Assembly: GCA_030916895.1 (NCBI GenBank)
Contig: JAUPVR010000003.1
Coordinates: 1 to 54,442, forward strand
Source of the DNA: Patescibacteria group bacterium
GTDB taxonomy: Bacteria > Patescibacteriota > Minisyncoccia > Phycocordibacterales > UBA5272
Direction of reading: 5' to 3'
DNA length: 54,442 nucleotides
This document shows, in pieces, positions 5,574 to 44,277 of the stretch (its first letter is position 1; each line of letters starts with the position of its first letter). The position numbers and the translations under genes were made by a program. The notes beneath the pieces are model-generated. The model had not been told where the DNA came from and ran no database searches. It saw only the letters and a list, made by a program, of their open reading frames with translations.

Positions 5574-5623
5574 AGAATATGCAGTGTAGTATAGCATATG
5601 TATGCCTCACTTAGTGGTTTGGA

Positions 5624-40190: not shown

Positions 40191-41012
40191 GTGGTTATGT
40201 CTTTAGGATTAGTTGGTCATCACAAAGACAGTGGTGTGAAAAATGATGAGAAATCTAGTGATGCATTGTTATCGCTTACCGCTCATGAATTAAGAACATC
40301 TCTCTCTGTTGTTAAGTGGTACACAGAAATGCTATTAGATGGCGACTGTGGGACACTACAAGATGACCAAATCAAATACTTAAAGACCATACAATCAAGT
40401 AATCAGAAAGCAATTGATCTTATACGGTCAATACTAAATGTATCCAGGTTAGACCTGGGTACTTTTAGTGTTACACCAGAAGAAATAGAGCTTTCAGCTG
40501 TTCTCAAAGGCGTACTTTCTGAGATGAAGGACGTCATAGAGGAAAAAGGTTTGTCTATAGAGGAGTCGTATGAACATAACACGTCAGAACCGATTTCGCT
40601 TGATAAGCAGATGTGTCTTGTTATCTTTAGAAACCTCATTTCTAATGCGCTCCTTTTTTCTAAAGAAAAAGGAACAGTGCGCATCTCTGTTAAAGAGGTG
40701 AAGCAAGGTGAAGAATGTGGTACCAAGGTATTACATAACGATAGTCTCGTTGTTGTGATTGCCGATGATGGTATCGGTATTCCAGAAGCTGATAAACAGC
40801 ATGTATTTTCCAAGTCTTTCTATCGGGGTTCTAATGTTACCGATGAAAATAGCAAAGGTGCTGGTCTTGGGTTATATATAACTAAACTAATCTTAGAAAA
40901 AACAGAAGGAGATATTTGGTTTACGTCAACAAAAGACGTAGGTTCCACTTTTTACGTAGCATTTCCAAAATCTGGTATGCAAACAAAAGAAGGAAAAACT
41001 AAGCTTGATTAG
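40191..41012 (+). CDS. Histidine kinase without a sensor domain (HisKA + HATPase_c)
   Basis: AHELRTS H-box, NLISNA, DDGIGI and GAGLGL. No TM segment. Start uncertain. Confidence 0.85.
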   Translation: MVMSLGLVGHHKDSGVKNDEKSSDALLSLTAHELRTSLSVVKWYTEMLLDGDCGTLQDDQIKYLKTIQSSNQKAIDLIRSILNVSRLDLGTFSVTPEEIELSAVLKGVLSEMKDVIEEKGLSIEESYEHNTSEPISLDKQMCLVIFRNLISNALLFSKEKGTVRISVKEVKQGEECGTKVLHNDSLVVVIADDGIGIPEADKQHVFSKSFYRGSNVTDENSKGAGLGLYITKLILEKTEGDIWFTSTKDVGSTFYVAFPKSGMQTKEGKTKLD

Positions 41013-41016
41013 CAAA

Positions 41017-41057
41017 ATATAAGAAAACAACCCCTCCGAGGGGTTGTTTTCTTATAT
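41017..41057. terminator. Bidirectional intrinsic terminator
   Basis: Perfect 19-bp inverted repeat ATATAAGAAAACAACCCCT-CCG-AGGGGTTGTTTTCTTATAT between convergent genes. Confidence 0.85.
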
Positions 41058-42569
41058 CCCTTTCAGTACTTTTATTTTTGCTCCCAGTTTATTCAACCTC
41101 TCGGCGATGTCTGCATATCCGCGTTTTATGGAGTACACATTGCGTAAAAGTGAGGTGCCTTCAGCGCCTAACATGGCAATCAAAATAATTGCCGTAGGAC
41201 GAAGTGCTGGGGGTGAGACAATTTGAGCCCCACGGAGGCGTTTTACGCCTGTGACGAGGGCTCGGTGTGGGTCTAAGAGTTTTATGTCAGCCCCAAGGCG
41301 ATTTAATTCCGTAAAGTAAATGGCACGGTTTTCCCAGGTCCAGTCATGAATAAGTGTTTGACCCTCTGCGAACGTACAAATTGGTACAAAGAAGGGGAGG
41401 TTGTCATTATTTATCCCTGGAAACGGTTGCGTATGAATTTTGTCGTGAGGGGCAAAAAGTTGTGAAGGGGAGACGGCGATGTCTACAAGTTTTGTTCTTC
41501 CGTTGTGTGAGAAGTATTGTTTAGAGAGTTTAAATACAAGCCCCATACGTTTTAATTTCTCAAGTTCAAGTTCTAAAAATTCAATCGGACATCGTGTGAT
41601 GGTTAACTTACTTTTCGTAACGATCGCGGCGGAAATGAAAAACATACTTTCAATTGGGTCTTCACTATTATGATGCTCAACACGCAGATTAATATCTTTC
41701 TTACCGTGCACGACAAGTGTAGAAGAACCAATACCGTCAATTTTCACCCCCATTTTTTCAAGTAAGAAACAGACATCTTGCACTTGATAGTTAGGGGGGG
41801 CAAATTTGATAGTGGTAATACCAGGAATACGAGAAGCGGCGATGAGCGCGGTAATGGCGCCCGTGTCGGAAGATTCATAAAGCGGAATAGTACCAGCGTG
41901 AAGACCTTTATGAGTTATGTCATAGTAGTTTTCTTTGGTATGTGTGGTGACACCTAAATACTCAAGCGCGTACTTGTGTGCAGCAACAGTTCGTTCGCCC
42001 ATTTTACACCCACCTGAATGTGGAAAGGTGAAGTGTTTGCTTTTATGAATGAATGCGCCAGCAAAGGTAAATGAGCGAATTTTCCCCGCAACATCGCGAT
42101 TAATTTTTCCAAGCGCAAATGTTTTTGGTGGAACGATTTCTAAACTGTTATCGTGTACCCATTTTACTTTTACACCAACGCTCTCAATCATTTCAATGTA
42201 GCGGTATACCTCTTCGATGTGGGGGATGCCATGCAGGATGGTTACGCCATCGTTTACAAGAGAGGCGACAATCATATTAATCGCACCATTTTTTGATGTG
42301 TTTGTCTCAGCGATACCTTTTAACTTATGACCACCTTCAATTTGGAAGTCGAGTGTATCATTAAGGGAAAGAATTGGACGACCTAAGACCTCTGAAAGCT
42401 TGGCAATCTGTTCGATGGTGACATTCTGTTTTCCGCTCTCGATACGTGCAATGACGCTCTGAGTTGTCTTTAATGCTTTGGCAAATGATTCTTGCGTAAG
42501 CGAATGTTCTTCGCGTAATTTTTTAATAAAGTTACCTATCTTCATCGCTTCAGACGCCTTTTTTGTCAT
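41052..42569 (-). CDS. murA: UDP-N-acetylglucosamine 1-carboxyvinyltransferase with an N-terminal XRE helix-turn-helix
   Basis: aa ~8-65 form an XRE HTH (LTQESFAKALKTTQSVIARIESG). The MurA core has SKNGA, GGCKMGER (catalytic Cys), FPGINND and VYSIKRGY. Confidence 0.92.
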   Translation of the reverse strand: MTKKASEAMKIGNFIKKLREEHSLTQESFAKALKTTQSVIARIESGKQNVTIEQIAKLSEVLGRPILSLNDTLDFQIEGGHKLKGIAETNTSKNGAINMIVASLVNDGVTILHGIPHIEEVYRYIEMIESVGVKVKWVHDNSLEIVPPKTFALGKINRDVAGKIRSFTFAGAFIHKSKHFTFPHSGGCKMGERTVAAHKYALEYLGVTTHTKENYYDITHKGLHAGTIPLYESSDTGAITALIAASRIPGITTIKFAPPNYQVQDVCFLLEKMGVKIDGIGSSTLVVHGKKDINLRVEHHNSEDPIESMFFISAAIVTKSKLTITRCPIEFLELELEKLKRMGLVFKLSKQYFSHNGRTKLVDIAVSPSQLFAPHDKIHTQPFPGINNDNLPFFVPICTFAEGQTLIHDWTWENRAIYFTELNRLGADIKLLDPHRALVTGVKRLRGAQIVSPPALRPTAIILIAMLGAEGTSLLRNVYSIKRGYADIAERLNKLGAKIKVLKGI

Positions 42570-42577
42570 GTGGAAAG

Positions 42578-42595
42578 TATAGCATATATGCTATA
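42578..42595. promoter_or_regulatory. Perfect 18-bp palindrome overlapping the murA extended -10 (candidate operator)
   Basis: TATAGCATATATGCTATA is its own reverse complement. It overlaps TGCTATACT (minus strand, 42584-42576), which lies 6 nt from the ATG. Confidence 0.7.
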
Positions 42596-42597
42596 TC

Positions 42598-43866
42598 TTA
42601 AAACAAGAAGACAAAAAAAGTCATAGAAAGCAAGGCCATAATACCAGTAATGGTCCAACCAAGAATATTTGAAAGCAAACTATTTGTTCGTTCACCTAAG
42701 ATTTTTTTGTTATTGCCGATAAGAAGAATGAGTGCCATAAGCGGAGGTGCGAGGATGCCATTTAATGCCGCCGCGTAGTAGAGCATGGTGATTGGATTAA
42801 TTGGCAAGAAATTAATGAGTACGCCAATAAGTGTTGCAACAATGATGACAAGATAAAATGCAGGGGCTTCGTGAAAGGTTCTTCCAAGCCCTGCTTTCCA
42901 CCCAAATGCTTCTGAGAGTGCGTATGCGGCAGAGCCAGCAAGAACGGGAACCGCCAAAAGTCCCGTTCCTAAAATACCGAGTGTAAAAAGTAAGAATGCA
43001 CCATCTCCTGCAAATGGGCGCAAGCTTTCAGCGACTTGGGCAGCGCTTGTAATTTCTGTAATTCCGTTGACGCCAAGCGTGCTTGCTGTGGTGATGATAA
43101 TAAAGAAGGCTACGATATTTGAAAGGAGCATGCCCATCACGGTATCTTTTTGCATTTGCGATACATCTTTGTAGGTTATTTTCGGTACGCCTTTACCCAT
43201 CGCACGCATGTTGCCATTAACAACTTCTTCTTCTACTTCTTCACTTGCTTGCCAGAAGAAAAGGTAAGGGGATATGGTTGTACCAAGTACTGCGGTGATG
43301 TTAAGGATGGTGCTCTCATTCCATGCAATATGTGGAATGAGCACAGACATTATAATCGCATACCAATTTTGTTCGACCGCGAATGCGGCAAAAATGTACG
43401 CAAACACACTGAGTGCTAAATATTTAAGGAATTTTACATAGGTACGATAGGGGACGGTAATTTCCACAAGAACGGTAATGATGGTAAGTACTGCAACAAG
43501 AACACCAAAAGGTACTGGTACGATAAGCTCAACGGCGGATGCCATTGCACCCAAGTCTGCACCAATGTTGATGATATTTGCAAACGCCAAAATAATCACC
43601 GCAATGTAGAGAATGTATTTTGGGTAATGTGTTTTAATGACGCCCGCTAATCCCTTACCAGTAACAATACCAATACGTCCGCACATTTCCTGAATGACAA
43701 TCATGAATGGAAGTGAAAGAACGGTAAGCCACAACTGTGAGAGACCAAACATGGCACCTGTTTGTGCGTAGGTGATGATTCCGGATGGGTCATCATCGGC
43801 AACACCAGTAATCACTCCTGGTCCGATAGATTTTGTTATACGCCTAAAAAAAGGCAGTTTTGTCAT
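42598..43866 (-). CDS. NRAMP-family divalent metal transporter
   Basis: GPGVITGVADDDPSGI, IQEMCGRIG and LGTTISPYLFFWQ. The start is at 43866 and the longer ORF extension is spurious. Confidence 0.9.
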   Translation of the reverse strand: MTKLPFFRRITKSIGPGVITGVADDDPSGIITYAQTGAMFGLSQLWLTVLSLPFMIVIQEMCGRIGIVTGKGLAGVIKTHYPKYILYIAVIILAFANIINIGADLGAMASAVELIVPVPFGVLVAVLTIITVLVEITVPYRTYVKFLKYLALSVFAYIFAAFAVEQNWYAIIMSVLIPHIAWNESTILNITAVLGTTISPYLFFWQASEEVEEEVVNGNMRAMGKGVPKITYKDVSQMQKDTVMGMLLSNIVAFFIIITTASTLGVNGITEITSAAQVAESLRPFAGDGAFLLFTLGILGTGLLAVPVLAGSAAYALSEAFGWKAGLGRTFHEAPAFYLVIIVATLIGVLINFLPINPITMLYYAAALNGILAPPLMALILLIGNNKKILGERTNSLLSNILGWTITGIMALLSMTFFVFLF

Positions 43867-43917
43867 GTTTTGTATAGTATAGACCAAAAAAGATATTTGT
43901 GGCGTATACTTATGTGT

Positions 43918-44277
43918 ATGAAGATGACGCCATTTCTTATGTACGTCCTTTACGATGTGTTCGAGGAGTCGCTTCGCGTTGAGGCGAAAGCAATGATGGG
44001 TGGGTACGTGCTTTATAGTGATGGAAAAGTATTTGCGATTGTTGATGGAGATATTTTGTGGTTGAAAGGTTCTGAAGAATTGAGGGAATGGTACGAATCG
44101 CGTGGTGGACAACAGTTCTCGTATATGAAACTAGCACCTGACGGAGGCGAAAGAAAAGTTCAGAAAATGCACTTCTATTCAGTGCCTGAAGAAGTATTGG
44201 AAGATAGGGAACAGGTAAGAGAATGGATTGATACGGCAATCTCTGTTGCAACACCACCAAAGAAAGTGAAAGAGTAG
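43918..44277 (+). CDS. TfoX/Sxy N-terminal domain protein
   Basis: KAMMGGYVLYSDGKVFAIVDGDILWLK and a FYSVPEEVLED tail. TATACT lies 7 nt upstream of the ATG at 43918. Confidence 0.82.
   Translation: MKMTPFLMYVLYDVFEESLRVEAKAMMGGYVLYSDGKVFAIVDGDILWLKGSEELREWYESRGGQQFSYMKLAPDGGERKVQKMHFYSVPEEVLEDREQVREWIDTAISVATPPKKVKE

Follow-up and report, generated by a model that had tools for sequence, protein, structure and literature searches.

BirA of Escherichia coli is at once a biotin protein ligase and the repressor of the bio operon, and PutA and NadR are likewise enzymes with a DNA-binding domain which repress genes of their own pathway. MurA catalyses the committed step of peptidoglycan synthesis and is the target of fosfomycin; the controls of MurA known to us are post-translational or act via separate regulators. 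Here we describe a gene for a MurA with an N-terminal helix-turn-helix (HTH) domain of the XRE family, found together with a palindrome on its promoter in a Patescibacteria group bacterium (assembly GCA_030916895.1). The analysed DNA, positions 1 to 54,442 of contig JAUPVR010000003.1, is called the window below. Through comparison with related loci, we consider it likely that the protein is a bifunctional enzyme-repressor, which would bind its own operator through the XRE head and exert negative autoregulation on murA.

The fusion resembles BirA in its arrangement: an N-terminal HTH-type domain and a metabolic enzyme body are joined in one polypeptide, and a dimer, predicted in the case of the fusion, sits on a palindromic operator overlapping a promoter of its own pathway. 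The two agree in the order of their domains and in having the operator placed on the promoter. BirA differs in that its HTH is winged, it targets the bio operon instead of the gene that encodes it, and the reaction intermediate biotinoyl-AMP drives its dimerisation, whereas the fusion has a Cro/C1 (XRE) head, a MurA enzyme and its own gene as the main predicted target, with ligand dependence as a candidate only. PutA uses a ribbon-helix-helix domain and switches by redox state and membrane binding; NadR combines an HTH with nicotinamide mononucleotide adenylyltransferase and kinase domains; and neither of them concerns peptidoglycan. The HTH and the operator of the fusion also resemble those of the autoregulated Cro/C1 repressors (434 and lambda repressors, SinR, C.AhdI-type controller proteins and HipB), which share the HTH_3 domain, a dyad of 14-18 bp on their own promoter and a specificity residue at the start of helix 3. 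These repressors, however, are small dedicated regulators with dimerisation domains of their own, while the partner of the HTH here is an essential enzyme of 430 residues.

In Firmicutes the supply of the first committed step is set by ReoM/ClpCP proteolysis of MurA, which acts after translation, unlike the control proposed for the fusion. MraZ controls the dcw cluster (PMC12957436). It would resemble the fusion in setting the supply of cell-wall genes, but is a separate protein of different fold that uses direct-repeat sites. In neither of these controls does MurA itself bind DNA, and in the literature searched we found neither an HTH-MurA fusion nor its operator described. The fusion contains catalytic and DNA-binding domains in one polypeptide and a predicted operator at genes of the same pathway, as described by the trigger-enzyme concept, which is said to come from Commichau and Stuelke in 2008. 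Among the enzyme-repressors of the BirA, PutA and NadR type it would represent a new enzyme family, and the first one to act in cell-wall synthesis. If this is true, cell-wall synthesis would be controlled in a new way, by a MurA that reads its own promoter, and the uncultured, regulator-poor Patescibacteria, for which hardly any transcription circuit can be drawn up, would gain one.

The features of the proposed system in the window are as follows.

Positions 41052 to 42569, minus strand: coding sequence of the XRE-HTH and MurA fusion, 505 amino acids (open reading frame and translation, Pfam, NCBIfam and whole-genome search).
Positions 42372 to 42527, minus strand: HTH_3 (Cro/C1, XRE) domain, residues 15-66 (PF01381 match, Pfam E 8.6e-14).
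Positions 42432 to 42467, minus strand: recognition-helix segment T35-T36-Q37-S38...G46, with the T36 codon at 42462-42464.
Positions 42357 to 42383, minus strand: flexible linker between HTH head and MurA body, residues 63-71 (AlphaFold2 model).
Positions 41094 to 42338, minus strand: MurA (enolpyruvyl transferase) domain, residues 78-492 (EPSP_synthase PF00275 and alignments to solved MurA structures).
Positions 42578 to 42595, no strand: operator candidate, a perfect 18-bp palindrome TATAGCATATATGCTATA, TATAGCA-TATA-TGCTATA (sequence and conservation).
Positions 42576 to 42584, minus strand: extended -10 element TGCTATACT (sequence).
Positions 42567 to 42569, minus strand: ATG start codon and predicted transcription start (sequence and genome-wide spacing).

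The palindrome is composed of two 7-bp half-sites with centres 11 bp apart and, counted from the A of the ATG, reaches from about -26 to -9. It covers the TGn and four of the six bases of the -10 element, with TGC and TATA lying within the right half-site, and the -10 ends 6 nt (TTCCAC) ahead of the ATG at 42569. Thus the original prediction, which had described a MurA with an N-terminal XRE HTH and a perfect 18-bp palindrome over the TGn and -10 in a 28-bp gap, 6 nt before the ATG, was borne out for the protein by Pfam, NCBIfam and the open reading frame, and every element of the promoter was found where it had been placed.

No Shine-Dalgarno sequence was found in the 6-nt gap before the murA ATG, and the murA mRNA is probably leaderless, starting at the A of the ATG. 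A consensus promoter scan which required a -35 did not list the murA promoter, there being no two-hexamer promoter at this place, and a genome-wide analysis of the spacing between -10 and ATG was used in place of it. Through this analysis, -10-like hexamers, often TG-extended, were found to end 6-10 nt before the first ATG in 95 of 376 long open reading frames, and for Shine-Dalgarno-like words there was just a slight enrichment, at 6-7 nt from the ATG. Because the -10-like hexamers pile up at this distance, leaderless transcription from extended -10 promoters is, judged by spacing, the norm in this genome, and the layout of the murA promoter agrees with it.

A single copy of the 18-mer is present in the window when as many as three mismatches are allowed (expected 0.01), and it is unique in the 660-kb genome, where it scores 28.4 bits with a position weight matrix against 16.1 for the runner-up. 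Symmetry alone was considered as a mark of the site and was rejected: with 27 perfect palindromes of 16 bp or more, compared with 9-19 in shuffled sequences, the genome is not short of them. The case rests for this reason on position and conservation. What goes beyond chance is the location in a 28-nt promoter gap and the conservation in relatives whose flanks are unalignable.

The fusion is widespread. More than 120 clusters at 75% identity or more were found, all composed of HTH and EPSP_synthase, and the few with a source name belong to Paceibacterota or Pacebacteria. It is present in 24 of 24 genomes of the same genus and in about half of the sampled sister families. In the upstream regions of the same genus and of many other families the palindrome is kept on the -10 while the flanks are unalignable, and the -10 lies 6-10 nt before the ATG, a spacing also seen in most relatives.

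For counting, an operator was called as TATAKCA-N4-TGMTATA with at most two mismatches to the 14 specified bases within 150 nt upstream; the set of fused loci included 80 from named metagenome-assembled genomes (Nomurabacteria, Paceibacterota, Kaiserbacteria and Yanofskybacteria) and 30 phylum-wide. The operator was found upstream of 115 of 124 distinct fused loci, but at only one of 16 closely related plain MurA loci. Plain MurA loci with 50-61% identity to the window protein showed five or more mismatches in 13 cases of 14, and six more fused loci from other families had the site with none or one. In a pattern search of 41 genomes, matches were detected in 28 with one to three sites each, and the site lies just before murA in all of these but one (G002). 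The eight genomes with plain or no MurA contained zero sites, and the reversed-pattern control gave about zero. Hardly any variation was seen in the half-sites; the central 4 bp show a strong bias when the loci are pooled but vary in distant lineages. Invariant halves around a variable centre would be expected for the site of a dimeric HTH. The comparison of fused and plain classes proposed with the original prediction therefore found the palindrome conserved upstream of the fused class and not of the plain class, and together with the variation at residue 36 described below it gives strong support to the claim that the fused HTH would bind the palindrome and MurA thereby regulate its own gene.

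Upstream of one HTH-less MurA (locus L071, G029:C1) we observed TATATTTCATATGCTATA, two mismatches from the operator, which may be what is left of an operator in decay since the head was lost.

A maximum likelihood tree of the MurA domain alone placed plain MurAs inside the fused clade several times. Independent pairs of fused and plain loci differ in the operator in the same way in five of five cases on well-supported branches, and in seven of seven on all branches. This suggests that the head was lost at least five times, each time together with the palindrome. The recognition helix and the operator also change together. In a set of 114 non-identical sequences, proteins whose recognition helix begins with T-T-Q-S have the operator TATAGC..GCTATA (18 loci) and those with T-S-Q-S the operator TATATC..GATATA (59 loci), so residue 36, Thr or Ser, tracks operator bases 5 and 14, G:C or T:A, in 77 of 77 loci with none discordant; the few mixed operators are half-changed. 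Residue 36 switched about six times on the best tree, three of these on well-supported branches, the operator changing each time. Moreover, fused loci with a rewritten recognition helix (L024, L196 and the Kaiserbacteria-type L159, L162 and L167) are without the operator palindrome, and no other palindrome was found at the fused loci with divergent HTH. Such a pattern is difficult to account for if the fused HTH is not the reader of the site, and the pairing of Thr36 or Ser36 with G:C or T:A offers a ready specificity code.

Several points weigh against the enzyme-repressor reading. With only five independent pairs on well-supported branches, the sign test of fusion against operator gives p 0.0625, and with only three contrasts that of residue 36 gives p 0.25; all independent contrasts run in the expected direction, though they are too few to reach 0.05. 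MurA enzymes are generally described as monomers. The genome contains two further weak HTH_3 matches. In G002, of the same genus, the fused MurA at the murA locus (L024) has the rewritten helix DIDKTQVIAIEEG and is without its own operator, and despite this divergent helix a perfect operator-like site (L034:1501-1518, G002:C36) is located 12 nt before the murC-like gene. Finally, RNA read through from the upstream gene can form a hairpin at the palindrome (-10.5 kcal/mol, z -4.0).

The additional HTH_3 matches and the site kept in G002, to which small XRE proteins in the relatives can be added, would suit a real operator read by a separate free-standing regulator, the fused HTH serving for example protein-protein contacts as the RodZ HTH does with MreB. 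We regard this as very unlikely. The presence or absence of the site follows the fused HTH over at least five independent losses, residue 36 of the fused HTH predicts the operator bases, and no free HTH in the genome resembles the fused one by tblastn. As to protein contacts, neither Pfam nor the structural model revealed a transmembrane segment, a RodZ-like architecture or a further domain in the fusion, in which the soluble MurA fold follows directly after the HTH.

The RNA folding leads to another explanation, that the palindrome is promoter or RNA architecture only and is read by no protein, being either a symmetric extended -10 or a read-through hairpin acting as attenuator or stabiliser. 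Its right half is itself an extended -10, double changes from G:C to T:A would keep a stem as well as an operator, and long perfect palindromes are not rare in this genome, as said above. Against it, the about 95 other leaderless -10 promoters have no left half, and nowhere else does the genome contain the full site; the upstream gene of the fused murA and its orientation differ among relatives, so there is no common read-through transcript; no U-tract follows the palindrome; and the absence at plain MurA loci and the link to an amino acid of the HTH are left unexplained by a hairpin. We give this explanation only a slight chance.

In the enzyme-repressor reading, the C-terminal 430 residues would be the MurA enzyme, as homology indicates, and the N-terminal XRE HTH, carried on a flexible linker of about ten residues, would bind the dyad TATAGCA-N4-TGCTATA as a dimer, the half-site centres lying one helical turn apart. 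Because the operator covers about -26 to -9 of an extended -10, leaderless promoter with no -35, the bound protein would exclude RNA polymerase, and negative autoregulation of murA would follow. Comparison of sequences supports that HTH and operator go together, that they were lost together and that residue 36 varies with operator bases 5 and 14; binding, dimer formation and the sign of regulation are what we infer from this. As the direction of regulation has this basis, and MerR-type activators bind dyads between -35 and -10, HTH-MurA might instead bind the site and activate or remodel the promoter in the manner of MerR. This appears improbable, for the operator overlaps the TGn and most of the -10 itself, there is neither a -35 nor an over-long spacer to remodel, and XRE/Cro-type proteins at such a position are classically repressors. 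For the repressor, it is possible that the open or closed form or the ligand state of the MurA body (UDP-N-acetylglucosamine (UDP-GlcNAc), phosphoenolpyruvate (PEP) or UDP-N-acetylmuramic acid (UDP-MurNAc)) modulates dimerisation or DNA affinity.

The enzyme part was recognised by several searches. For the two-domain EPSP_synthase fold Pfam gave E 1.9e-36 along 415 residues, and for HTH_3 51.8 bits against a cut-off of 23. Of the NCBIfam models for MurA, the subfamily model PRK09369 (NF006873) matched at 305.8 bits with a cut-off of 297, and the equivalog TIGR01072 stayed below its cut-off (286.7 against 392.7). By these scores the window protein is a divergent MurA. The best solved-structure matches of the enzyme part are all MurA. 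K93, C188 (codon 42006-42008), R193 and R483 align with conserved residues of the solved MurA chains, which we take to be Lys22, Cys115, Arg120 and Arg397 of the E. coli enzyme. They are retained in 30 of 30 fused relatives, with loss only in the pseudo-enzyme branch described below. A whole-genome search revealed the fusion as the sole EPSP_synthase-family gene of the 660-kb, 93%-complete genome, in which murB and murC-like genes are also present. Because it is the only family member and has the conserved Lys, the loop Cys and Arg and the C-terminal Arg, the fusion is probably the working MurA of the cell and catalytically competent.

The AlphaFold2 model of the fusion has a mean predicted local distance difference test (pLDDT) of 90.6 and a predicted template modelling score (pTM) of 0.82. 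The modelled HTH helices comprise residues 7-21, 26-32, 37-44 and 52-62, and residue 36 caps the recognition helix 37-44, the third helix of the HTH. The linker is without predicted secondary structure, and at residues 68-71 its pLDDT falls below 50. Among the closest HTH sequences of solved structure are C.AhdI, C.BclI and HipB.

Distant fused homologues in a library of representatives showed an enzyme part only 31-38% identical. They are without the Cys/Arg loop and have partly lost the Lys and the C-terminal Arg too, while the HTH of these pseudo-MurA proteins is almost unchanged (TSQSAVARIEKGEQN) and better conserved than the MurA-like body. At L202, L203 and L205 the pseudo-MurA gene is divergent from an operon which starts with a plain murA and continues to murB or a Mur ligase gene; the plain MurA at L202 has the GGC..R loop. 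The palindrome is located in the shared promoter region of 25-85 nt in all three of these divergent clusters (L202:3481-3498, L203:4972-4989 and L205:4974-4991). Downstream of the pseudo-MurA genes on the same strand is a Mur ligase gene, preceded in L203 by Ddl. At L206 and L208 the site lies before the own gene or operon. HTH, operator and murA thus stay linked even where regulator and enzyme are separate genes, which is independent support for murA as the target, and the retention of the MurA fold hints at its use in the regulator for sensing or dimerisation, without catalysis. These loci look like an enzyme-regulator that split into a regulator and an enzyme, and would be a clear case of such splitting. 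To our knowledge, neither the PutA nor the NadR family includes pseudo-enzyme regulators beside a separate enzyme copy, unlike the family here.

From these relatives a wider role may be drawn, which we put forward tentatively and with more doubt than confidence. The MurA fold would be the ligand-sensing and dimerising module of a phylum-wide XRE family governing the entry into peptidoglycan synthesis in Patescibacteria, ranging from bifunctional enzyme-repressors to pseudo-enzyme regulators beside a separate murA. Operator binding would be gated by the conformation of the MurA body or by what occupies it (UDP-GlcNAc, PEP, UDP-MurNAc as feedback ligand, or a fosfomycin adduct on Cys188), so that the enzyme itself would sense and set the precursor flux.

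In this genome a matrix search found no operator besides that of murA, the one target detected; an ordinary TGCTACACT promoter serves the murC-like gene, and murB is internal to an operon. The relatives contain extra operator copies 10-12 nt before murB (G001) and before the murC-like Mur ligase gene (G002). A weaker look-alike in the gmd promoter (5594-5605), from which a link to sugar-nucleotide use had been suggested, was rejected as a related site: in register, six of the seven bases of its left half-site are mismatched, the inner repeat is shifted by 2 bp, and the operator matrix gives it a score of less than 10 bits. The only common feature is the extended -10 (TGCTATACT).

Outside the window, the second-best site of the genome is TAAAGCACATATGCTTTA, with 16 bits at contig C13:9509-9526 (L050:1501-1518). 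It has a symmetric T-to-A change in both half-sites, is located about 90 nt before the likely start of EF-Tu and lies within a longer inverted repeat (CCCATGGG-type flanks); it may be a weak operator or an unrelated hairpin. In the relatives, operator-like sites at L040:1501-1518, L042:1501-1518 and L046:1501-1518 overlap start codons of unrelated genes, with the ATG inside TATATGATATA. The genes at such sites encode an unannotated 208-aa protein (L042) and an S-adenosylmethionine decarboxylase; the L040 protein is similar to the L042 protein at the N-terminus and runs off the contig end. These sites may be chance products of MIY and MIE N-termini.

Two further features flank the murA gene.

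Positions 42598 to 44112, minus strand: Nramp (MntH-like) transporter gene, upstream and co-directional (Pfam Nramp E 1.5e-74).
Positions 41024 to 41049, no strand: GC-rich hairpin AACAACCCCTC-GGA-GGGGTTGTT, immediately past the murA stop codon (sequence).

The stop codon TAA of the Nramp gene occupies 42598-42600, 2 nt from the palindrome, and the gap between this gene and murA is 28 nt (42570-42597). The Nramp gene is context and stands outside the proposed murA system. Although an automatic terminator scan had no entry for the hairpin at 41024-41049, it is a probable bidirectional terminator common to murA and the convergent histidine-kinase gene (40191-41012, plus strand).

An intact HTH-MurA, 47% identical to the window protein, was also observed in a high-GC genome, GCA_018603905.1, on an 877-kb contig (L209:3971-3988). 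There an AT-rich palindrome, CATCTCATATGTGAGATA, is located 12 nt before the ATG, behind a formyltransferase/enoyl-CoA-hydratase-like gene. This organism could be an experimental model if it is culturable.

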